From: Promethearchaeota archaeon
GTDB taxonomy: Archaea > Asgardarchaeota > Lokiarchaeia > Sigyniarchaeales > SOKP01
Assembly: GCA_048940445.1 (NCBI GenBank)
Contig: JBHLON010000008.1
Coordinates: forward strand, 23,134-87,133
Reading direction: 5' to 3'
DNA: 64,000 bases
Shown here one piece after another: positions 6,311-32,009 of the stretch. Under the pieces are notes generated by a model. The model was not told the origin of the DNA, did no database searches, and saw only the letters and a list, made by a program, of their open reading frames with translations. Both the position numbers and the translations under genes were made by a program. The stretch's first letter is position 1. Each line of letters starts with the position of its first letter.

Positions 6311-7018
6311 TCATAACAGATAATCCGTAATTTTTTTCATATAAATTGTTTCATTTAATAACTTTCTTGTAGTATCCCAAGTTTTTCGAGCAATAGAAGG
6401 GGGTTTTTTATTTTTTACTATCCACTCTCTCAGAAAATTAATAGTTTTAGTATCAGAGGGATATCCAGATCCAAAATCTCCATACTTTTCTCTTAAATTT
6501 CCAATTAAATTGTCTCTAATCTCTTTTGCAATAATGGAACTAGCCGACACAATAGGATATATGTCGTCTGCCTTATGTTTCGAGATAACTTTAGTGGGTT
6601 TAAAATCTAATAATTTTTTTATCGAATCTCCAAACCTTTTTTCATTTACATCAACTGCATCCACTATTATTATATTTGGTTTTAATTCATTGATTATCTC
6701 AATATATTTAAGTAACTCCAATCTATTGAGAGTAAAATGACTTTTTACTCTATTATCAATTTCTTTAGCACTTATTATTTTAACTTTCAAGGAATAGCAT
6801 TTTCTTTTAATAATTTGTGCAAGTTCAATTCTCTTTGAGCTAGTAAGTTTCTTAGAATCTTTTACTCCAATCTTACTTAGAATCTCTAAATCAAATGATG
6901 GAAAACATACACCACATATTACCATAGGCCCCAAGACTGGTCCTCTCCCTGCCTCGTCGATTCCACAAACTAATTTACAATTCTTGGATAACTTCAATAA
7001 ATTCCTCTTCATCATCAA
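6311..7018 (-). CDS. rnhB: Ribonuclease HII (true start may be slightly downstream)
   Basis: GIDEAGRGPVLGP, DSKKL, HKAD, SAASI-like SASSIIAK, GSGYPSD. Confidence 0.95.
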   Translation of the reverse strand: MMMKRNLLKLSKNCKLVCGIDEAGRGPVLGPMVICGVCFPSFDLEILSKIGVKDSKKLTSSKRIELAQIIKRKCYSLKVKIISAKEIDNRVKSHFTLNRLELLKYIEIINELKPNIIIVDAVDVNEKRFGDSIKKLLDFKPTKVISKHKADDIYPIVSASSIIAKEIRDNLIGNLREKYGDFGSGYPSDTKTINFLREWIVKNKKPPSIARKTWDTTRKLLNETIYMKKITDYLL

Positions 7019-7979
7019 TTTCTTCTAATTCTTTTACCTTGATAATTGGGATCTTTTCCTTCATTAAATCGTCAGATATTTTGATGTTATCGTTAATGAT
7101 GAAAAGGGCATTTTTATGAAATAATTTTGTGAATGTACGGAGGCATTCAACAATAGATTCATTAATTTTTCTTTGATCTTCTGTTATGCCTGAAAATATG
7201 GGATAAAAATTTGATTTTTGGTTGTCTTTTGAAATTTGTGAGTATAGAGACAATTGAAAGGGGATAGGTCCTTTTTTATACCAATAAGTACAAATACCAA
7301 TATCGTTAATAACCTCTTGTATATGAAACTCAAAAGGTGATAGATAACTCTCTTCTATATTTTCTTTATTATCTAAATCATATTTGATGGGCCAATCAAA
7401 AATATTAATTCTTTTAAAGATATCATTACTTTCTAGTATATCGGATATTTTTTCAGCAATTTTTTCAGAAGGACGTAAGCTTTCATTCTCATAGGAATAT
7501 ATTGTCCTCTTAGCTATTCCCAGCTTCTCAGATAATTCTTTTCGACTGATAGAATGTTGTTCTCTAAATTCTTTCATCAGAGATCCATTTAGAAAAACCA
7601 CCCCTCCACCACGTTTAGCCAAAATATACGGATATCTATTCCTGTTTAAAATATTTTCCAATGTATTTGAGGTTATAAAAGGTAATCCTTCTCTAATGTA
7701 AATAGTATTATCTTCTAATTTTTGGTATCTATTTCTAACACCAATCAGTAATGGTTTAGACTTCAACAATAGAGAGAGAGATTTTATATCATTAATAATT
7801 TCTGAGCTAATATTATCAATATTTGAAATCAATTTTACACTAAAAATTGAAGATTCTTTTTTTACTAATATATCAAAGCAGAATTTGCTTTTTTTGTTAG
7901 AATACTCATCTAAAAATAAAGTTTCAAAATCAGCTTTTTTTAATATTTCATTTATTTTGCTCAGAAGTGTTTCAGTCAT
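6975..7979 (-). CDS. Archaeal HTH (Cro/C1-type) transcriptional regulator, COG1395-like
   Basis: N-terminal CFDIL domain, RGGGVVF, then HTH ISRKELSEKLGIAKRTIYSYEN. Confidence 0.8.
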   Translation of the reverse strand: MTETLLSKINEILKKADFETLFLDEYSNKKSKFCFDILVKKESSIFSVKLISNIDNISSEIINDIKSLSLLLKSKPLLIGVRNRYQKLEDNTIYIREGLPFITSNTLENILNRNRYPYILAKRGGGVVFLNGSLMKEFREQHSISRKELSEKLGIAKRTIYSYENESLRPSEKIAEKISDILESNDIFKRINIFDWPIKYDLDNKENIEESYLSPFEFHIQEVINDIGICTYWYKKGPIPFQLSLYSQISKDNQKSNFYPIFSGITEDQRKINESIVECLRTFTKLFHKNALFIINDNIKISDDLMKEKIPIIKVKELEEIDDEEEFIEVIQEL

Positions 7980-8091
7980 TAAATCCCATTATTAAAAAAT
8001 TTAGCGGCTATAAAAATCTTTATTATTATTATGTATTTGATATTAATTAATTTGATTATATAACTAAAATTTATATATAATTTTATAATTT

Positions 8092-8637
8092 TTATTTGGT
8101 TATAAGTTTAAGAACGTCAGAATCTGTAATTATTCCAACATATATATCATTTTTTTTTACAAGGATAGCAGGATAATTACTTAATAAATTTGAAATATCC
8201 TTTGCATTCCAATCAACTTCAACTTCTGGAAAAGGTAGTTCTTTTAGAAGAGAGATATCCATATTTAAGATTTCTGGTTTATCTGTGATCTCTTTTTGTA
8301 TCTTTTTAGAGGTTATACTGCCAAGATTTTGCCCATTCTCTATTATTGGGAGTTGTGAAATGCTATTTTCGTACATTAATTCTATAGCTTCTTTAATTGA
8401 TGATCTAGGTCTTATTGATATTATTTTCTTTGTCATAATATCCTTCGCAATCATTTCAGCTTGGGACTTTTTCATAGTTTCCCTCTCTAAAAATTCATAA
8501 ATGACTTTGAATTTCGAATAGGGAGGATCCATGCTCCCATTTTCTATTCTCGAAATTGTGGACTGGGGAATTCTTAATTTTTCTCCCAGTTCTTTTTGGC
8601 TAATATTTAGACTTTTTCTTAAATACTTAATAGTCAT
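8092..8637 (-). CDS. XRE HTH + CBS-pair transcriptional regulator
   Basis: ISQKELGEKLRIPQSTISRIENG HTH; AKDIMTK, ISQLPI, VGIITDSD CBS motifs. Confidence 0.9.
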   Translation of the reverse strand: MTIKYLRKSLNISQKELGEKLRIPQSTISRIENGSMDPPYSKFKVIYEFLERETMKKSQAEMIAKDIMTKKIISIRPRSSIKEAIELMYENSISQLPIIENGQNLGSITSKKIQKEITDKPEILNMDISLLKELPFPEVEVDWNAKDISNLLSNYPAILVKKNDIYVGIITDSDVLKLITK

Positions 8638-8694
8638 ATAATCTGGTAAAATTGTTCTCTACCTAATGCATAAAGTTTTTTTACTATAATTTTA

Positions 8695-8711
8695 AAGCAT
8701 AATAAATGCTT
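8695..8711. promoter_or_regulatory. Palindrome AAGCAT-N5-ATGCTT, candidate operator between divergent HTH-CBS and mat genes
   Basis: Inverted repeat seen directly, with further ATGCAT at about 8666 and 8715; function inferred. Confidence 0.35.
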
Positions 8712-8808
8712 GAGATGCATTTTTTTTTTAATAATTATTATATTTGATTATGAATTTAAATTTATACTATATTAATTGTTAAAGTAAATTTTAATTTGGT
8801 TATGTAAT

Positions 8809-10056
8809 ATGTTGAAAGTTAATCAGCTTGATCTTAAATTTGCTGTTGAATATTCTGAATTTCCGGAGATTTGCGAAAGAAAAGGAGTTGGACATCCAGA
8901 TAGTGTATGTGATGCGATTGCAGATGCTTGTTCGAGGGCATTATGCTTATATTACTTAGATAAATTTGATCGTGTTTATCATCATAATGTTGATAAAGCA
9001 GCCTTGGTTGGTGGTGTAGCTAAACCAGAATTCAATGGAGGCCAAATGATTCAACCACAATATTTTTTAATTGTGGGAAGGGCTATAAATCAAATTCTTA
9101 CCGAATGTGGTCCAAATCAAAATAGGTTAGATTATATTCCAGTTGCTCCAATTTGTCTTGATACGTCGCGTAAAATTATGGGTGAAATTTTTAGAAACCT
9201 TAATTTGGATAAACATATTCAATTTGACTATGCGGTAAGACCTGGTTCAGTCGATTTAACTGGTGTTTTTGATGAATCTCATCATTCTGAAGAAGTTCCT
9301 CTTGCAAATGATACAAGTTTTGGGGTGGGTTATGCACCATATTCAGATGCAGAAAGAGTAACTCTTGAAACAGAAAAATTGATCAATTCAGATAAATTTA
9401 AAGATAAATGTAGAGCATCTGGAGAAGATATAAAAGTTATGACAGAGAGGGTTGGTAATAAAGTGGGGATTACGGTAGCTGCTGCTATGGTAAGTAAATA
9501 TATCGATGATATTGATGATTATATTAATAATGTTAATCAAATTAAAGATGCTGTACTAGATCTAGCGACTAAAGTTATTCCAGAGAGAGAAGTATCGTGT
9601 CAAATAAATGTTGCTGATATAATAGAGAAAAATTTAATCTATCTTACAATAACTGGAACATCAGCAGAATCAGGAGATGATGGGGAAGTGGGAAGAGGAA
9701 ATCGTTCAAATGGATTAATTACTCCATGTAGGCCAATGAGTCTAGAGGCGGTATGCGGTAAAAATCCAATAAATCACGTTGGAAAAATATATAACGTTGC
9801 AGCGACAAATATCGCTCGAGAGATTTACAAGAGGGGTGAGGGTGATATTATTGAATGCCATGTTAAACTTTTATCTCAAATAGGACGACCAATCACAGAT
9901 CCTTGGGTAAACTCTATAACATTAATTCCTGCAAATAATGTGAACTTTTCAAGTATCGAAAAAATAGCAAAAGAAGTATCTGAAGAATTTCTATCAAAAG
10001 ATTCACTGATTAAATTAAGAAAAAGATTGATTGCTGGCGAAGAACAAGTCTTTTAA
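8809..10056 (+). CDS. mat: Archaeal-type S-adenosylmethionine synthetase
   Basis: [59 protein letters not shown]. Confidence 0.96.
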
Positions 10057-10128
10057 AATACTTCGGAATTAAATTTAATTATTTATTCTTTTTATTTAAT
10101 ATAAAAATTAGAAAATTGTGAAAGTTAT

Positions 10129-10407
10129 TTGAGCTTGGAAAGATGGCTAAAACCGGGAAAAAAAGGTGATAAAAGTGAAGAGAAACAGAACAAGCCCGAA
10201 GAAAAAAGTGAAAAGGATGAAAGGAATACTAATGCAACATTGAAACAAAAACACGAGTTTGAAAAGCCAGTAGCTGTAAGAATAATTAAATTTAAGCTAG
10301 AATGTCCTAAAAGCACATGCAAATATAAAAAAACAATCATTAAAAAAAATTTAGAAGACAAGGATAAGATTTGTCCTAGATGTAAAAGTAAAATGAACGT
10401 TAAATAA
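10129..10407 (+). CDS. Small zinc-ribbon protein
   Basis: CPKSTC...CPRC; charged N-terminus. Confidence 0.65.
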   Translation: MSLERWLKPGKKGDKSEEKQNKPEEKSEKDERNTNATLKQKHEFEKPVAVRIIKFKLECPKSTCKYKKTIIKKNLEDKDKICPRCKSKMNVK

Positions 10408-10415
10408 AGCATTTG

Positions 10416-10637
10416 TTAAGCTTCTATTGGTTCAAGAGTTACAAGATCAAAACGAGTCTCACAATTAGGGCAGCGATCTTTTTTTTTTAAATATTTTAAT
10501 AGAAGATAAACGAAAAATCCCAGTCCACAGGTAAGAATAACCATAAAGAATAAAAGTTCATGATATAAACGATTAAAATTTTTCCTTCTTAATTGCACTT
10601 CACGTTCACATATTGGGCAATATACTTTTCTACTCGT
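10416..10637 (-). CDS. LITAF-like membrane-associated zinc-ribbon protein (probable ACG start at 10637)
   Basis: The frame extends upstream of the tracked GTG: ACG-SRKVYCPICEREVQL...hydrophobic segment...DRCPNC. The first CxxC lies upstream of the tracked start. Confidence 0.6.
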   Translation of the reverse strand, partial: TSRKVYCPICEREVQLRRKNFNRLYHELLFFMVILTCGLGFFVYLLLKYLKKKDRCPNCETRFDLVTLEPIEA

Positions 10638-10777
10638 TTAAACTCACTTCTTTATACTCTTTTAAATTTATAAATAAATAAAATGATTAGTGATTAATTT
10701 AACTTTTGAATATGACGGTTTTTACTGTAAAAAAATAAGTCAGTGTTTAATACATAATCAAGGAGTGTTTCTGATTT

Positions 10778-10903
10778 TCAATTTTCTTTTTTCTTTTTTG
10801 TTAAATCGGTTAATATATTCCATGTACTTTTTACGCCTAAGGTCTTCAATTTTTCTCTTTCTTCTTCTAAATCTTCTTGATTATTATTTTCTGCTTCGTT
10901 CAT
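10778..10903 (-). CDS. Small charged hypothetical protein (41 aa)
   Basis: Manual translation MNEAENNNQEDLEEEREKLKTLGVKSTWNILTDLTKKKKEN*; purine-rich, coding-like composition. Confidence 0.4.
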   Translation of the reverse strand: MNEAENNNQEDLEEEREKLKTLGVKSTWNILTDLTKKKKEN

Positions 10904-11079
10904 TGCTCCAGACCAATACCTATCCTATTTTATATATTTATATGATGATTAGAATATCTTATCTATATATATAGATAATATAACCTTGATTTAAATTTAG
11001 ACTTAATATTATTAATATTGAATTTTATATCAATAATAATACCTTAAATAAAAATAAATTAAATAGCGGTAATTGATTC

Positions 11080-12048
11080 ATGCCAATATGTTATCATTGT
11101 GGACGAGAAACAAACGAATTATATCATTGTAGTAAATGTAATCAAAATTATTGTATATTCCATAAATTACCTGTTGATCATGAATGTGATTTTTTAATAG
11201 CAAACATACAATCTTATCAAGCACCTTCAATATCTACTCAATATGTAACGACTCCACAATCTCAAGATTTTATCTCTTCAGAGTCCCCAATAAGAGGTAC
11301 AACAGATGGTACATATACATGGTATCGTCAAGAAAAGTCTATTCCTGATAATGCATTTGATGCTAATTCAGGAATTGAATTTAAAGGTATTTTATTAGCA
11401 CACAAGTCAGAGTTTTTACATTTCTTGATTGGGATTGCCCTTATATTCCTTATAGGATTTATTTCATTTTTCGAACTTATTTATATGAATTATACTTGGG
11501 CTTTATTTATGTTAGCTACGTTTTATATGACGACTTTCCTTTTTCATGAATTAGGGCACCGTCAAGTAGCGATCCATTTCGGACTTCAAACTAAATTTAG
11601 ATTACTCACATTTGGAATGCTAATAACTAGTTTTAGTATCATTATTGGATTGTACGGATTATTTACATCCTCACCAGGATTACCCATGCTTGCTTTACCT
11701 GGAGCAGTTGTGGTTCTAGGTTTAGACAAAGTAAGCAGAAAAACAGGGTTATGCAAAGCAGCCGGTCCCTTTATCAATTTGATTTATGGGGGCATACTTC
11801 TTGTTCTGTCTTTTCTTATTCCAAAAGGATTATATCCTATAAATACTTTTATCGGATATGCGGCATATTTCAACTTTATGTTAGGAAGTTTTAACATGTT
11901 ACCATTTGGAATCTTAGATGGTCAAAATATTTGGAAATGGAATAAAAAGATTTATATTCTCCTAATAATGCCACTCCTCATACTCTTAATAATTACACTT
12001 TGGAGTATTTTTGCTCCATATGATGTTAATCCATATATACAGCGATAA
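11080..12048 (+). CDS. AN1-type zinc finger + site-2 protease (M50) intramembrane metalloprotease
   Basis: CYHC...CSKC...C..HKLPVDHEC; HELGH; AAGP; FNMLPFGILDG. Confidence 0.88.
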   Translation: MPICYHCGRETNELYHCSKCNQNYCIFHKLPVDHECDFLIANIQSYQAPSISTQYVTTPQSQDFISSESPIRGTTDGTYTWYRQEKSIPDNAFDANSGIEFKGILLAHKSEFLHFLIGIALIFLIGFISFFELIYMNYTWALFMLATFYMTTFLFHELGHRQVAIHFGLQTKFRLLTFGMLITSFSIIIGLYGLFTSSPGLPMLALPGAVVVLGLDKVSRKTGLCKAAGPFINLIYGGILLVLSFLIPKGLYPINTFIGYAAYFNFMLGSFNMLPFGILDGQNIWKWNKKIYILLIMPLLILLIITLWSIFAPYDVNPYIQR

Positions 12049-12145
12049 TTAAATGGAAATATTAAAAAACAATCAAAAGAATTATGAAGTAAAAAGTTTT
12101 TTATTAAGTATAATATGTGTAATTTTTTTTCAAATTAATAAGTGA

Positions 12146-13081
12146 GTGGAATTGGCTTTCTGTGAATACTGCGGAGAAAAAATTGGCTATTTACCATTTA
12201 AATGTAAATACTGTGGAGGAATATTCTGTAAGAAGCATAGATTACCTGAAAATCATCAGTGTTCTTTTGAGCTTAAGCACGTTCCTTTAGTTCCTGTAGA
12301 TGCCAAAGAGATTCCTATGTATAACACCAAAGAAGCTAAAGTAACTGTACAAGAAGACTCATTTAAAGCTCCAAAAGCATTGAAAAAGTATTTAAAACGC
12401 CAAGAAAGAGAAGTTAAATTAATAAGAAAACGCACTCACCCCTCTATTTGGGGACGATCTCACATTAAAGGCACATGGATTCTAATGGTGTTGATTTTAG
12501 GATTTTCGATTACAGGTTTTATTCTTTTATCTTATGGTATTGGTAGTTATATTTACTTTGATTTACATATCCTAATCTATGATTATCTATTCCAAACTAT
12601 TCTTACTAGCCTGTTTATATACCCAGTTTTCGGTGCTTTTGGATTTATTTTCTTCATTATGATGATATTTTTCTTATTTTTTATCTCTCGAAGTATTGAA
12701 TTAGGTTTTGGAACATCCTTTTTAATTAAACTTTTTTTACTTAGCTCTGCAACCTCTCTGTTAATTTTTATATTACTGAGATTAGTTTTTATCGGTTTAT
12801 TCCCATTAGAATCGACAGTTATTTATTCTGGTTTTGCTTGGGGAGGAATTTATGGATTATTTTCATATATGATATTCCCGAATGCAAATAGGGAAATCAC
12901 TGCATTTCTTTACTTTTTCCCCATTAGATTGAAAGGAAGAACATTTCTCATAATAATAGTCTTAATTAACTTATTACCAGTAATATTTTATGGATCTATA
13001 GCTCTTTTAATTTATATTCCAGCACTTGGAGGAATATTGTTTTCATATTTAGTTTATAAGTTTAATTGGAATTTATCTTAA
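12146..13081 (+). CDS. AN1-type zinc finger + rhomboid-like membrane domain (apparently inactive)
   Basis: CEYC...FKCKYC...FCKKHRLPENHQC; about 6 TM segments; GFAWGGIYGL and PALGG in place of rhomboid GxSG and AHLGG. Confidence 0.7.
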   Translation: MELAFCEYCGEKIGYLPFKCKYCGGIFCKKHRLPENHQCSFELKHVPLVPVDAKEIPMYNTKEAKVTVQEDSFKAPKALKKYLKRQEREVKLIRKRTHPSIWGRSHIKGTWILMVLILGFSITGFILLSYGIGSYIYFDLHILIYDYLFQTILTSLFIYPVFGAFGFIFFIMMIFFLFFISRSIELGFGTSFLIKLFLLSSATSLLIFILLRLVFIGLFPLESTVIYSGFAWGGIYGLFSYMIFPNANREITAFLYFFPIRLKGRTFLIIIVLINLLPVIFYGSIALLIYIPALGGILFSYLVYKFNWNLS

Positions 13082-26448: not shown

Positions 26449-27072
26449 TTAACTTGATTTAGAGATCGAATTTTTCAAGATCAGCCATAATTCGTCGAGT
26501 TCTTTTCTAACCTCTAAAAATTGATGAATTTTTTTCAATAATACATCTCTAGCTATATCAAAATCTCGTTGATAATCTTCGAATTCAGCATCTAGAATTT
26601 TAAGTTTTTCACCCTCAATCAACTTGTTTTTCATCTTTTCTACATTTAAAGCCTTCTTAATTACTGCACTTCTTTTACTGGCAAGTTCATTAAGAGCATC
26701 TGCAAATTCATTTTTTTTTTCAATGAAATATTCCTTCTTTAAGGCAAGATTCTTAATTGCATCTATATATTTATTATTAGTATCAATATATTCATCATTT
26801 TTATGAATAATATCTTGATATAATCTTATCTCTTCTTCTTGTATATTTGATTTTTTTTCTCTGACTAAAGTTTGCATCTGTTTGATTACATCTCTAAAAG
26901 TTCTATTTAACATTTCTCTGGCGAGGTTTGCTTTAGTAAGATTTTCTGCGTACTTTTTTTGAGAGTTAATGAGATCGCTTTGGGCTTTAGCTAATTTTTT
27001 TATCTGATTAACTAACTCCTTTTCTGTTCTTGCTAATTCAAGTTCATCCTCATGTGTGATAATAGGACTCAT
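26449..27072 (-). CDS. All-helical coiled-coil protein, BAR-domain-like
   Basis: About 200 aa with three long amphipathic helices; BAR-like helix 3 pattern (inference). Confidence 0.6.
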   Translation of the reverse strand: MSPIITHEDELELARTEKELVNQIKKLAKAQSDLINSQKKYAENLTKANLAREMLNRTFRDVIKQMQTLVREKKSNIQEEEIRLYQDIIHKNDEYIDTNNKYIDAIKNLALKKEYFIEKKNEFADALNELASKRSAVIKKALNVEKMKNKLIEGEKLKILDAEFEDYQRDFDIARDVLLKKIHQFLEVRKELDELWLILKNSISKSS

Positions 27073-27171
27073 TTTAATCAGCTTCTATTAAAAATTAATT
27101 ATATTTATTTAGTGTATGTTTATTATGCTAATACATAATTATATATTTTAGTTTTTTAAATTTAATTATAA

Positions 27172-28221
27172 TCATGCAGGAAATAAAGCTGTTAATATAT
27201 TATCTTTAAAGTTTATCTTTATTATTTCTGCTTTAATTTTTTTATTTAACATTTCTTCGGAAAATACGAAAGGTTTTTTCAATAGAACTTTTATTCCATA
27301 ATTATCATCAAATTTTCCAATACATTCATAATCCCAACGTCCTCTGGACACTATCTCTAATTCAATTAAGTCATGTTTTTTTAAATTAATGCTTGAAATA
27401 GGCGAGGTCTTATGAATTCCAAAATCATTTGGTCCAAGTTTTAATTTGATATTATACTTCTTTTCTAGAGATGTTAACTGGTTATAGAAATAATCCCATG
27501 ATTTTGGTCGAATTTTTTTTAATTTCCTTCCTGTTTTATATATGAGGTATTTCTGAATGCCGATTTGGACTTTTTGATTAGAATAACCTTTATTTCGTAA
27601 TTGAATAACAAATTTTATTATTTCTTCAATATCTTTGTCATTTTGATTTGGAAACCATACAGGGGCAATTAAAATATCGATATTTGTATCCAGTAGCAAA
27701 TTAATATTTTTAATAAGTCCTTGAAGATTGTATTGCTTGCAATCACATAAATAATTTGCTTTTCTTTCATCTAAAGTATTTAAACTGATATTTATACGTG
27801 TAAGATTTAATTCATTTAGCACTTTAATAGTCTCTTTCGATAATAATAAGCCATTACTTTGCATCGATATAATTTTTATACCTTGAACTTCCCAAAGTTG
27901 ACGTATCAAACTATATAGTTCGGGATATAATAAAATTTCACCATAAGGTGCTATATGAATTTCAATATCTGAACATGTTTTTATATCAACAGCTTTTTTT
28001 ACTTCAGCAATTAAATAATCTGCACTCACTAAAAAATTGGTATTATAATTACCTGCATTTACAAAACAATATTTACATTTCAAATTACACAAAGTCAGGG
28101 GCTTTATTTCAAGCACATTTGTACCACGATCTATTATTCCAATAAAGTCAACTCCCATTAGAGGGATGTTTGATTTTTTATCTATATATAAATTAGTATT
28201 AGTCATTAGTCTTGAAGTCAT
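27172..28221 (-). CDS. Radical SAM protein (archaeal COG2100-like)
   Basis: GIIDRGTN, CNLKCKYC, GEILLY, MQSNG. Confidence 0.87.
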   Translation of the reverse strand: MTSRLMTNTNLYIDKKSNIPLMGVDFIGIIDRGTNVLEIKPLTLCNLKCKYCFVNAGNYNTNFLVSADYLIAEVKKAVDIKTCSDIEIHIAPYGEILLYPELYSLIRQLWEVQGIKIISMQSNGLLLSKETIKVLNELNLTRINISLNTLDERKANYLCDCKQYNLQGLIKNINLLLDTNIDILIAPVWFPNQNDKDIEEIIKFVIQLRNKGYSNQKVQIGIQKYLIYKTGRKLKKIRPKSWDYFYNQLTSLEKKYNIKLKLGPNDFGIHKTSPISSINLKKHDLIELEIVSRGRWDYECIGKFDDNYGIKVLLKKPFVFSEEMLNKKIKAEIIKINFKDNILTALFPA

Positions 28222-28234
28222 TTACCTAATTTAT

Positions 28235-29308
28235 TTAAGGTTTATATCTCAAAATGGCTACAATATCTCCTAAATCAATTATCTGCTGACCAGTGGGTTG
28301 TTCACTACTTAAGATGTGATATTTTCCTCCAGAATTTTCAATATCTGTCAAAACTTCTTCAATTTCAAGCTTTTTTTCTTTTGAGGTCCCTCTTATTAAA
28401 ACATCTGCAATAAACAATTCTTCAATTACTCCATTCTTCGATAAATTAGCGATTTCTTTCATTCCAATAGCGATTTTATCTGGATCAGTTGCTAAAATAG
28501 TAAGAATGTCCTCAATCTTTTCTGTTTCTTGTATCACTTTTACTTTTTCTTTCAAATCTTTTAACTGGGGAGATTTTAATATCTCAAATATCGCACTCTC
28601 GGTACCAGAACTAGCATGAATTGTAGTGATTTTTGAAAGATAATCTGGTTGTTTCTTTTCTTTAATATAATTTAAAAATTTATCTTTTATATTTCCAGGA
28701 CCACATAAAACAATTAAATTAATATTTATATTTTTTATATTCTCATCTAATAATTCATAGATATCATTAAAAAATTCTTCATAAGCTTTGTTACGATGGA
28801 TTTGTTCATACCTTTTTCCAGGAATTGTTTTTTTAATCGTAGCTATTTTTGTATGACTGAAGTTAGTAATCAGTACAGAATTCGCTAAACCAGTTTCGAT
28901 AGCTATTATAAGTATAACAAAATTTGTTTCAAATTTTGAAGATTCTTTTAACCTTCTTATCTCGCTTTTTAACCAAGTGTCCTTTACAATATTTATGGTA
29001 TTACCCACTTCAACATTGAAAGTATGATAGGCTCCAAATCTCACAAAATCTTCGGGTCCTTCATTGATTGTACCTTTAATCCTTAATCTATTTGAAAATT
29101 CATGGAATGAAATAGATTCTACCTTTAATTTTATCCACATATTTTTTCTTTCTCCTTTAGTACCTTCCCTTAATACAACTCTCCTAGAAGTACGCATAGA
29201 AACATAATCATCCTTAGAAATAAGATTATAAAGTGTCCATAAATCATTTAATGTTTCAGTTTTAACAACGACTTCTTGATTTTTTTTATCTATTTCAAGA
29301 ACCTTCAA
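28235..29308 (-). CDS. pelA: Pelota/Dom34 ribosome rescue factor
   Basis: ETLNDLWTLYNLI, RLRIKG, GAYHT, IPGKR, GPG, LGDIVAILRY. Confidence 0.95.
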   Translation of the reverse strand: MKVLEIDKKNQEVVVKTETLNDLWTLYNLISKDDYVSMRTSRRVVLREGTKGERKNMWIKLKVESISFHEFSNRLRIKGTINEGPEDFVRFGAYHTFNVEVGNTINIVKDTWLKSEIRRLKESSKFETNFVILIIAIETGLANSVLITNFSHTKIATIKKTIPGKRYEQIHRNKAYEEFFNDIYELLDENIKNININLIVLCGPGNIKDKFLNYIKEKKQPDYLSKITTIHASSGTESAIFEILKSPQLKDLKEKVKVIQETEKIEDILTILATDPDKIAIGMKEIANLSKNGVIEELFIADVLIRGTSKEKKLEIEEVLTDIENSGGKYHILSSEQPTGQQIIDLGDIVAILRYKP

Positions 29309-29439
29309 ATATTAAGTCATCTTTCCTAAATTGAGTATTCCTAATTTAAATAAAGAATAAATATTTGAAAAGCTTACTTTTTTAAAGCTTATTTTAAACA
29401 ATAAATAAAAAAAGGAAAATGAATCATAAATAAAGTGAA

Positions 29440-29592
29440 TTATTCTTTTTCTCCTAAGGCTTTTTTTATTTTTTCAAGTTCTTCCATTCTTTTCTTCTTT
29501 TCTTCTTCCCTCTTTCTCAGTTCATCCACACTAACCTTTTGAAGAGTGACTCCTTTCTTAATCTCATCTTGCAACTCTTTATCAATTGGCAT
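29440..29592 (-). CDS. 50-aa protein with WH2-like motif + charged helix
   Basis: Not in the ORF track. MPIDKELQDEIKKGVTLQKVSVDELRKREEEKKKRMEELEKIKKALGEKE*; AAGGAG SD about 10 nt upstream. Confidence 0.75.
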   Translation of the reverse strand: MPIDKELQDEIKKGVTLQKVSVDELRKREEEKKKRMEELEKIKKALGEKE

Positions 29593-29717
29593 TTTTCCAC
29601 AACTCCTTTTGAATTGATAATTTCTGAGAAGAAATTATAATCTTAAATTTACAGATATTATAACAATTTTTATTTATAAGTTTTAGTTTATAGAAAAATA
29701 TTAAAATTGAAAGAAAA

Positions 29718-30164
29718 TTAAAGAATCAATTCCATCAAATAAGCATTTTCATGATTACTATAATAATTCTCAATTTCTTGCACTATCTGGAATTCAAAGT
29801 TTTGATAAAGTCTTATTGCGATCTTATTATTTGTTTTTACATTTAAAATAACTTTATGGATATCTTGGTTCTTTTTTATCAATTCTAAGGTTGTTTGTAA
29901 TAAGTAAGAGCCATAACCCATACTTTGATACTCTTGTTTTATTGAAAGATTTATTATATTAATAGTGTGTCTATTATCATGGATTGCGATTATATATCCT
30001 ATTGTTTTAGATACTTTTTGGTTTTCTACCAACTTTAAGAATAAAGAATTACTTAGAATCAATTTTGTGATTGTTTGTTTTGAGAAAGATTCTGATTTGA
30101 AAACACTTTTCTCAATTTTCATAATTGTTTTTAGATCTTCTAAATTAACTCTCATTATTTGCAT
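29718..30164 (-). CDS. rimI: RimI/Ard1-like N-acetyltransferase (GNAT)
   Basis: YQSMGYGSYLL, LNVKTNNKIAIRLY, YYSNHENAYLM. Confidence 0.85.
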   Translation of the reverse strand: MQIMRVNLEDLKTIMKIEKSVFKSESFSKQTITKLILSNSLFLKLVENQKVSKTIGYIIAIHDNRHTINIINLSIKQEYQSMGYGSYLLQTTLELIKKNQDIHKVILNVKTNNKIAIRLYQNFEFQIVQEIENYYSNHENAYLMELIL

Positions 30165-30165
30165 T

Positions 30166-31305
30166 TTATTCCATCTCTTCTTTAAACACCTTTATTGGAG
30201 TTTTTTCTGTTATTTGAGCATATTGCTCTTCTCTAAATGGAGTAGTTTCTATAATAAATCCATTTAATTTATAATCATCTAGTATTTCAATAAATTTTTC
30301 TTCTAAAGTGAAAATAACTGGTACCTTTATCTTTTGCTTGTCATAAAAAATATAACTTTGTGGCATTTTTATTTTAAACAATAAATTTTCTATAAGTTTA
30401 TCTAAGTTTTGCTTACTTCCTTCAATCTGAGCATATAGTAATAATCCATCTTCTGTAATTTGTTCAAATGGCATTTTAATTGATTTTGCTCGGCGCAAAT
30501 ATCGTTCTTTTAGTTGCCAATAATCTTTAGCATTTATAGTACAAAAATGAATCTTTAGAGAGACTTTATGTAAAAGCTCTTGTAATAAAGCTAGGGCCAT
30601 TTCTTTACTGTGTTCTACAGCAGCAATTGAGCCCTTTTTTAATTTAAAGCCTCTTTCTATTAAGTATTGGCTGTTTGGAAAAGAAAATTCAAATTCATTC
30701 AAATTTATAAAGTGGGCTCCAACTTTATCAAGAAATAATATAAATTCTCTGAGTTGCTTTATATATTCATTATTCGGAATTAACGGAACCTCTGCTCCAA
30801 CCTTAATTCCTTTTTGTAATGCTAATGGGATTGAATTCCACTTTTCTTTTGGAGGATTAAATCTAATTTCATCTAGTCCTACTTCAGCTAATGTGTCGGA
30901 TATTTGTTTATTAAAACTTAATCCATTGGTATATAAATGAATGTGGAATTTCTTTCCCTTCTTTTCCTTAACATATTTTATTAAATCTATTGTTTTTTGA
31001 AAATTAGTTTCACTAAGGGGCTCTCCTCCGGTTACACTCATCCCTTTTGCCTTAGTTTTATTAATTTCATCAAGTATTTCTTCGTTGGTAAATACTCTAA
31101 TTTCATTTGCATAAGTAAAATCTTTTCCTTTTCTTTCAGTAGAAATTGGACAATACCAATAACAATGCATGGGATTTTGACATTTTCCATTAAGAAATAA
31201 AACAGTTTTTGCTCCAATTAAACACAACTGGCATCCTTTTGGAATTCCTTTTCCTTTAATAAAAAAAGTTTGTGCTCTTGATTTTTTTATTCTTCTTCTT
31301 TTCAT
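30166..31305 (-). CDS. Radical SAM protein (COG2108-like)
   Basis: PKGCQLC, CQNPMHCYWYCP, TGGEPL, HLYTNG, GLDEIRF, NLNEFE. Confidence 0.85.
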   Translation of the reverse strand: MKRRRIKKSRAQTFFIKGKGIPKGCQLCLIGAKTVLFLNGKCQNPMHCYWYCPISTERKGKDFTYANEIRVFTNEEILDEINKTKAKGMSVTGGEPLSETNFQKTIDLIKYVKEKKGKKFHIHLYTNGLSFNKQISDTLAEVGLDEIRFNPPKEKWNSIPLALQKGIKVGAEVPLIPNNEYIKQLREFILFLDKVGAHFINLNEFEFSFPNSQYLIERGFKLKKGSIAAVEHSKEMALALLQELLHKVSLKIHFCTINAKDYWQLKERYLRRAKSIKMPFEQITEDGLLLYAQIEGSKQNLDKLIENLLFKIKMPQSYIFYDKQKIKVPVIFTLEEKFIEILDDYKLNGFIIETTPFREEQYAQITEKTPIKVFKEEME

Positions 31306-32009
31306 TTTTTATAGAGTTTTTTTCTTACGATAGGTTTTTTATTTGATAATCTTTTTAATACCTCTTCTGTACTTTCTTGAAAAGCGATTGCTTTTTTTAA
31401 GAAGACTCCTGTTTTTCCATGTTTTTCTCTTTTTAGTAAAACACTAATTCTTTCATTTACGGTATTTAAACTTATTTTTAACTCTTTTGCTGCTTTAAGT
31501 TCATTTCCAATGATAGAGTATTCTTCATGTCCTTCATGATTTGGTTTAATCATTACTAGTCGTTTATCAACTCCTGGTATTCTAAGATGATTTTTCAAAT
31601 CATTAAGACTTAGCTTACCTCCAAAATCATAAAATTCTAGTGAAGTGGTATCCATTTTTGAAAGTGGTATAGTTATACTTTCTAATTCACTTAAATATAT
31701 GTATAATTTTAACGAATCATTAGGTGTTGCCATAATTATTTCTCGAAAGTAAGAAGTAATTCCGTTTTTATTCAAAAGATACTCAATTTGAAAAGGGGAA
31801 ATTAATTGCAGAAAAATAAGATCAATATCACTGTCTTCATGCACATCCCCACGTGCAATACTTCCATAAATATAGGGAGCAATTCCTGCTTTAGTAAATA
31901 TTTCTAATAATTCAATAGCTCTTTTTCTTTTTGTTTCAAGAAGTTCCATTTGTTTTTCGGAGTAGACGCATAATTGATAATGTTCTCTTAATATTTTTTC
32001 CTTATTCAT
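31302..32009 (-). CDS. Minimal nucleotidyltransferase-domain protein (COG2413-like)
   Basis: YGSIARGDVHEDSDIDL; RIPGVDKRL; GKTGVF. Confidence 0.88.
   Translation of the reverse strand: MNKEKILREHYQLCVYSEKQMELLETKRKRAIELLEIFTKAGIAPYIYGSIARGDVHEDSDIDLIFLQLISPFQIEYLLNKNGITSYFREIIMATPNDSLKLYIYLSELESITIPLSKMDTTSLEFYDFGGKLSLNDLKNHLRIPGVDKRLVMIKPNHEGHEEYSIIGNELKAAKELKISLNTVNERISVLLKREKHGKTGVFLKKAIAFQESTEEVLKRLSNKKPIVRKKLYKK

Follow-up and report, generated by a model that had tools for sequence, protein, structure and literature searches.

A conserved 50-residue microprotein of Loki-type Asgard archaea carries a single copy of a repeated 45-residue unit with a weak WH2 resemblance

A short open reading frame in the genome of an Asgard archaeon (Promethearchaeota) raises the question of whether as few as 50 codons can encode a protein that binds actin. 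The frame lies in the window, which is the whole stretch of 64,000 nt that was analysed. A first reading, made from the sequence alone, had seen in it a stand-alone thymosin- or WH2-like regulator of Lokiactin.

A short gene under selection

The coding sequence of the microprotein extends from ATG to TAA at 29440..29592 (-), stop codon included. A Shine-Dalgarno-like GGAG is located at 29603..29606 (-), 10 nt 5' of the ATG, so the 50-aa frame with a good ribosome-binding signal that had been described in the sequence-only reading was borne out. A related element, AAGG[AT]G[AT]TG, is kept 5' of the orthologues. The translated protein begins with MPIDKELQDEIKKGVTLQKV, which is followed by an E/K/R-rich stretch. 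The frame had also been called unannotated. This is correct for the window, but orthologues are on record at NCBI and JGI. A large protein collection yielded 203 relatives of 27 to 88 aa, all from Promethearchaeota-type MAGs, and the named records among them (NCBI and JGI) all read 'hypothetical protein'.

Conservation in relatives and translation were among the checks put forward in the sequence-only reading, and both were observed. A frame of 50 to 53 codons was open in 24 of 24 genomes of the genus, with 63 to 94% identity, and was also kept in other families of the same order. For 51 distinct orthologues, dN/dS was about 0.10, and the variable sites at codon positions 1, 2 and 3 numbered 30, 24 and 49, respectively. 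In L. ossiferum, the small orthologue sits between UYP46131 (GNAT) and UYP46133 (ZPR1). Its 69-codon annotated form has a mass of 8.24 kDa, matching GNAMCCOK_02436, which was detected by mass spectrometry in all proteomes (mean log2 18.4) and with 5 peptides and 43.5% coverage in a Lokiactin coimmunoprecipitation. The small orthologue is translated in L. ossiferum, and the 50-codon microprotein gene is real and under selection.

A chance open frame without function in AT-rich DNA might have been suspected, since the frame is short, of low complexity and under the usual cut-offs for gene calling, and since its WH2-like motif is by itself not beyond chance. Selection on the frame, with low dN/dS, dominant third-position variation and preservation across families, together with the orthologue peptides, refutes this explanation, whose probability we put at virtually nil.

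The spacers on both sides of the gene are AT-rich, with 125 nt upstream and 131 nt downstream. The upstream spacer, 29593..29717 (-), contains TATA-like TTATAA/TTATAAATA boxes and, judged from the sequence, is probably the gene's own promoter; a spacer of similar size was kept in 40 related loci. T-runs follow the stop codon, and the T-rich tract at 29400..29425 (-) is probably an archaeal terminator. Together, the AT-rich spacers and the T-runs suggest that the microprotein gene is a separate transcription unit. A scan of the locus for bacterial promoters and terminators was set aside as not meaningful in an archaeon.

The same-strand neighbours encode a pelota/Dom34 homologue (eRF1 domains 1-3), a GNAT acetyltransferase, two radical-SAM proteins, a nucleotidyltransferase and an uncharacterized 207-aa protein that has no Pfam match. 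These genes form a seven-gene block at 26449-32009 (-) of the window, in the order nucleotidyltransferase, radical SAM, GNAT, microprotein, pelota, radical SAM and 207-aa protein, and the order was identical in 40 of 40 related loci.

A 45-residue unit with a WH2-like front half

The conserved part of the microprotein is a unit of about 45 residues. A short amphipathic helix (helix A) is followed by a loop of the form G..L.K[VI][DS], and a capping box then leads into helix B, a long charged helix of some 27 residues. Helix A and the loop, which reads G..L.KV in the microprotein, make up the WH2-like part, ELQDEIKKGVTLQKV, at residues 6-20 (29533..29577, -). The S/D-x-x-E capping box and helix B occupy residues 21-47 (29452..29532, -). 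Residues E31, K34, R35 and E37 of helix B are invariant, and the most conserved residue of all, R35, lies outside the WH2-like part.

Larger proteins contain this unit as well. The small proteins and the tandem units are homologous across all 43 aligned columns (hhalign 97.7%, E 1.4e-12), and a profile of the small proteins retrieved tandem and fused units at E 1e-9 to 1e-22. In a sister family, to which MK-D1 and L. ossiferum belong, proteins of 480 to 500 aa contain about ten tandem copies. Behind a profilin domain, the unit is present once, twice or four times. The unit also stands behind Ras-like GTPase or LRR domains, usually then followed by a ribbon-helix-helix (RHH) domain, behind a lone RHH domain, and at the end of a coiled-coil protein. 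A word-index search for longer fused forms gave nothing, K/E-rich proteins crowding its results; the fused forms were found by other searches. The family is present in 63 of 68 and 7 of 7 genomes of two families of one order and in two further families, and in almost none of about 225 genomes of other Asgard families. This restriction to one order argues against an ancestral relation to the eukaryotic WH2 and thymosin motifs.

Proteins of 120 to 141 aa that consist of an RHH DNA-binding domain and one unit were observed at L035:1143-1565 (+) and L026:1884-2276 (-) and in P0187. Should the unit bind actin, these RHH-unit proteins would follow the logic of ParR, which likewise has an RHH domain and binds with its tail to the cleft of ParM, an actin-like protein.

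An AlphaFold2 (AF2) model of the MK-D1 ten-unit protein (pLDDT 61, pTM 0.20) showed no compact fold or solenoid. It consisted of about ten helices of about 36 residues, each helix B running into the next helix A, and the low-confidence loops of 8 to 10 residues between them are exactly the G..L.K[VI]D motifs. Since no compact solenoid was formed, the model does not predict that helix A hides its hydrophobic face inside the protein. As modelled, the ten-unit protein fits a string of linear binding motifs.

Residues 6-20 follow the spacing of a WH2 motif, with L7, I11, G14, L17, K19 and V20. In the alignment of the small proteins, K19 and V20 never vary, G14 and L17 hardly do, and the hydrophobic residues L7 and I11, spaced as i and i+4, are conserved. 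A motif of the LKKT/V type is present after the helix and reads LQKV in the small protein. At this position in the tandem units, the leucine is invariant and V/I is kept, while the lysine is variable, so K19 is not conserved there. The segment of helix A is predicted to be helical in the relatives, and many tandem units read LL..I.

Taken by itself, this resemblance is weak. Neither Pfam WH2 (PF02205) nor Thymosin (PF01290) matched the microprotein or its orthologues at E<=10, and the search with the WH2 HMM that the sequence-only reading had proposed as a check did not detect the microprotein frame in a scan of its own genome. On the tandem proteins, Pfam WH2 scored 12.8 to 13.6 bits, against a gathering cut-off of 23.1 bits and a score of 15 bits for an unrelated frame of the same genome. 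The scan of the own genome and three relatives gave sub-threshold matches only, one of them in an unrelated 217-aa protein of MK-D1, indicating that such scores arise by chance. Pfam scans of the microprotein, orthologues and tandem proteins found no WH2, Thymosin or RPEL domain and returned noise only (DUF7067, DUF3921). The [KR]-[PV]-x-x-x-E-[LI] spacing of RPEL (PF02755) is present, but the hydrophobic pair that should follow is absent and there is no Pfam match, so RPEL was rejected. A loose WH2-like regular expression matched 4 frames in this genome and 2 to 6 in shuffled frames, and a strict one matched 1 and 0 to 2, respectively. The WH2-like motif alone is no commoner than chance. The motif named in the sequence-only reading was upheld in its spacing and conserved columns, but not by the Pfam WH2 and Thymosin models or by the regular expressions.

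In searches of the PDB with two family profiles, N-WASP WH2 came first or second. With a profile of 14 small proteins, the tandem-WH2 chain of N-WASP, 3m3n_W, ranked first of 177,635 PDB sequences at E 2e-4, a value that sums three near-identical engineered repeats of 5 to 10 bits each and is evidence of rank, not of significance. The same profile matched 2vcp_D at E 0.46. A second profile, built from tandem units only (mutually 25 to 35% identical), had four PDB matches, two of which were 3m3n_W and 2vcp_D. With both family profiles, helix B matched PDB coiled coils, natural as well as designed. The nearest named ESM Atlas cluster to the microprotein in language-model features was Thymosin, with a score of 0.86, which by the calibration of the tool is a lead only. 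On these comparisons, the WH2 resemblance is genuine yet weak, and homology to eukaryotic WH2 or thymosin is not demonstrable.

Compared with the eukaryotic WH2 motifs of N-WASP, WAVE, WIP, MIM, Spire and Cobl, the unit has a similar, predicted short amphipathic helix with hydrophobics at i and i+4 and a glycine three residues before L-x-K-V. Like them, it occurs singly and in tandem, and its relatives are associated with actin and fused to profilin. It differs in that the small protein has Q or K at the second leucine of the LL pair, in its scores under the Pfam thresholds, in its length of 45 aa with an obligatory long charged helix that WH2 does not have, and in its restriction to one archaeal order. 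With beta-thymosin, actobindin and ciboulot, the microprotein shares a stand-alone form of about 45 to 55 aa, K/E-richness, helices at both termini and a motif of the LKKT type, and tandem-repeat versions exist in both families. In the orthologues of MK-D1 and L. ossiferum, the sequence EIE.HDKS.MK.V recalls the core of thymosin beta-4. In contrast to beta-thymosin, the microprotein has no flexible linker, its second helix of about 27 residues starts at a capping box, it has no Pfam Thymosin match, and the enrichment of its orthologue in coimmunoprecipitation was weak. Because the Pfam tests failed and the extra helix is obligatory, the microprotein is, on its sequence features, assigned to neither the WH2 nor the beta-thymosin family.

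Two other proteins carry similar strings. A 267-aa helical protein of another Asgard class (G269), at L038:1222-2022 (+), contains the near-canonical WH2-like string ELKASILSGVSLKKVDEE. It was matched in 2 of 76 genomes of its family and was set aside as probably a chance similarity. The eukaryote-like protein P0182 (762 aa), which has FHA, PP1-binding and two SAP domains, contains about 14 repeats of TP.RN.IKAG..L..V with a weak Pfam WH2 score of 18.1 bits. These repeats match the front half of the unit only, and P0182 is probably unrelated. Its setting is presumably nuclear, which counts against an actin reading of the front-half motif.

Relatives fused to profilin and coprecipitated with Lokiactin

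The source genome contains four actin-family genes, the best scoring 442 bits, and its Lokiactin is encoded at C72:30196-31308, so the stand-alone microprotein of the sequence-only reading does have an actin in its own genome. The only profilin-like match of this genome is located on the contig of the microprotein gene, about 15 kb ahead of the window (C94:7975-8214); its 19.3 bits are under the Pfam cut-off and in the range of four fusion proteins, in which Pfam Profilin was the top match at 16.6 to 21.6 bits. One of the fusions, of 251 aa, was modelled with AF2 from an alignment of 43 sequences (pLDDT 75.5). Residues 1-120 fold as a profilin and matched the Odin profilin 5zza at E 8e-10, with a TM score of 0.88 and an rmsd of 1.5 Å. 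They also matched the Loki profilins 5zzb, 5yed and 5yee, with all profilin matches at E 8e-10 to 4e-8 and TM 0.80 to 0.88. As modelled, the fusion partner of the unit is a profilin fold. The unit itself appeared as a helix at 145-162 (pLDDT about 56), a loop below 50 and a helix at 170-193 (about 75), and was not a confident part of the globular domain.

In Leishmania, a WH2-like helix built into profilin has been shown experimentally to bind the actin cleft (PMC10907219). The Loki-type fusions are alike in having a profilin and a WH2-like helix in one chain, and the i/i+4 hydrophobics of the trypanosomatid helix are those that bind the cleft (PMC10907219). However, the trypanosomatid element is inserted within the profilin and has neither an LKKV stretch nor a charged helix (PMC10907219), whereas the Loki fusions carry one to four whole units after the profilin domain, and the two are of independent origin.

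In two close relatives, the profilin-unit gene (L092:6017-6790, +) adjoins genes for two CheB proteins, CheY, CheC, CheD and a Roadblock-Ras-like GTPase (6839-12531, G233 C3; likewise L094). The linkage was rejected as a general feature because it was found in these two relatives only and not in G172. This neighbourhood could hint at a link between chemotaxis and actin or could be a coincidence.

A published Lokiactin coimmunoprecipitation from L. ossiferum was examined for members of the family. The ten-unit protein of L. ossiferum B-35, encoded at C1:4726363-4727826 (-) (L088:1364-2827), has 488 aa and a monoisotopic mass of 56.41 kDa, and its neighbours have masses of 24.5, 58.2, 68.5 and 54.0 kDa. 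In Supplementary Table 2 of the preprint, GNAMCCOK_04085 is listed at 56.41 kDa (bioRxiv 10.1101/2025.11.30.690169). The offset of about 43681 between locus tags and accessions (Supplementary Table 3) and the adjacent YggS gene UYP47767.1 place GNAMCCOK_04085 at UYP47766. From the mass match, supported by the accession offsets, we infer that the ten-unit protein is GNAMCCOK_04085. The enrichment of this protein over IgG was log2 4.53 (adjusted p 0.0021), with 44 peptides, 70.5% coverage and 366 spectra, just above Lokiactin itself (4.44) and 2DGel1 (3.97) (bioRxiv 10.1101/2025.11.30.690169). GNAMCCOK_04085 is mentioned in the text of neither the preprint nor the Nature version.

The ten-unit protein was among the four most enriched noncontaminant proteins of this coimmunoprecipitation. 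Ranked above it were GNAMCCOK_00333 (37.5 kDa, log2 9.2), GNAMCCOK_02751 (67 kDa, log2 7.7) and GNAMCCOK_04250 (20.6 kDa, 91.7% coverage, log2 5.1). The small orthologue GNAMCCOK_02436 was not significantly enriched in the Lokiactin coimmunoprecipitation (log2 0.57, p 0.042, adjusted p 0.105). The experiment was made on cell lysate with filaments present and reports association, not direct contact.

Actin docking, its alternatives and the place of the unit among Asgard actin regulators

We tentatively favour, at a confidence a little short of even, the reading that the microprotein is a single-unit, low-affinity direct binder of actin that docks on Lokiactin in a WH2-like way. The frame would then encode the one-unit form of a 45-residue module that is specific to Loki-type Asgard archaea, and the front half of the module would dock as a WH2 or beta-thymosin peptide does. 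Helix A, with L7 and I11, would occupy the hydrophobic cleft on the barbed face of actin, the L-x-K-V stretch would run along the actin surface, and the long helix B would provide a second contact or a rigid spacer. A single unit would have modest affinity and fast exchange, and may buffer monomers or compete with other cleft binders. Multi-unit proteins would gain avidity and line up or decorate several actin subunits, acting as high-avidity organizers. For the unit, direct contact, the binding site and an effect on polymerization are what we infer. The coincidence of the conserved front-half columns with the functional positions of WH2 was counted in favour of docking, and the fusions to a profilin fold together with the coprecipitation of the ten-unit protein tie the unit to actin through its relatives. 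The fusions to RHH, Ras-like GTPase and LRR domains are not obviously related to actin and count against docking. The thymosin/WH2-like regulator of Lokiactin that was originally proposed is partly supported: it is favoured by the profilin fusions and the coprecipitation of relatives, but not by the 45-aa extent of the unit, with R35 outside the WH2 part, or by the small orthologue, which was not significantly enriched.

The same fusions could mean that the unit serves protein-protein contacts or coiled-coil formation and directly contacts not actin but a GTPase or roadblock component, another hub, or a second helix B. The ten-unit protein would then reach Lokiactin indirectly, and the small protein would buffer or compete for that other partner. 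We consider this unlikely, though worth serious attention. The range of fusion partners besides profilin, the coiled-coil matches of helix B, the position of R35 in that helix, the failure of the WH2 and Thymosin models and the behaviour of the small orthologue in the coimmunoprecipitation are all in keeping with it. It accounts poorly for a ten-unit protein that was enriched as strongly as actin with very high coverage, for the profilin fusions, one of which has four units, and for the conservation of the amphipathic helix and the invariant L.K[VI][DS] loop as a linear motif and not as a heptad pattern. Binding to the side of the Lokiactin filament is improbable in our judgement. Here, one unit would be bound per subunit in the manner of nebulin or tropomyosin; the ten-unit protein would stabilize the filament or serve as its ruler, and the small protein would weakly decorate single sites instead of binding monomers. 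Subunits along an actin strand repeat every 55 Å, and the ten 36-residue helices of the AF2 model would each span about 54 Å, so one unit per subunit would be geometrically possible. The filaments in the lysate and the weak pull-down of a single unit, as expected of avidity-dependent binding, would also fit. However, no similarity to nebulin or tropomyosin repeats was seen, the front half resembles cleft-binding peptides, and the fusion to profilin, a binder of monomers, points to G-actin.

A role in translation or ribosome rescue, together with the neighbouring pelota (Dom34) and N-acetyltransferase, would make the WH2 likeness a by-product of a K/E-rich helical peptide. This is highly improbable, even though the seven-gene order is fixed in all 40 related loci, the arrangement GNAT-small gene-pelota is kept in two genera of another family, and a GNAT gene also lies 5' of the small gene in L. 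ossiferum. The AT-rich spacers suggest a separate transcript, the small gene has lost its synteny with pelota in MK-D1, in L. ossiferum and in the GC-rich family, no translation factor is found among the fusion partners of the unit, and the ten-unit paralogue precipitates with actin.

Current papers describe Asgard actin as regulated mainly by profilins and gelsolins. A WH2-like motif of the LKKT type has been reported in the linker of Asgard two-domain gelsolins (PMC9433394; PMC7444086; bioRxiv 10.1101/2025.11.30.690169), and in the literature searched this four-residue stretch was the only WH2-like element reported in Asgard archaea. The present unit is mentioned in none of these three papers. 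The two are alike in the L-x-x-V stretch, which in the gelsolins lies on actin in crystal structures. They differ in that the gelsolin motif has four residues and no preceding cleft-binding helix of its own, whereas the present unit stands on its own, recurs in tandem and is joined to other domains. Judged by its relatives, the microprotein is probably an undescribed actin regulator.

It is distinctly improbable, in our estimation, that the 45-residue unit is a true archaeal counterpart of WH2 and beta-thymosin. Cleft-binding peptides, single and tandem, would then have existed in Asgard archaea; the ten-unit protein would be a Spire- or Cobl-like nucleator or filament organizer, monomer delivery would fall to the profilin-unit fusions, and the 50-aa protein would be the thymosin of archaea. 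If this were true, actin regulation in Asgard archaea would extend well beyond profilins and gelsolins. Since the family is restricted to one order, which is not the order closest to eukaryotes, a parallel invention of a WH2-like solution is more likely than an ancestor of the eukaryotic motif, and such an invention would also be informative.

The organisms, the antibody and the proteomics for Lokiactin already exist, and the ten-unit protein is among the strongest of the coprecipitating proteins. The family further indicates that a gene of 50 codons, shorter than gene calling usually accepts, can be part of a cytoskeletal system. Beside profilins and gelsolins, an actin-associated peptide unit that stands alone, is repeated and is shuffled among domains would be a third class of regulator in those cultured organisms that are most closely related to eukaryotes.
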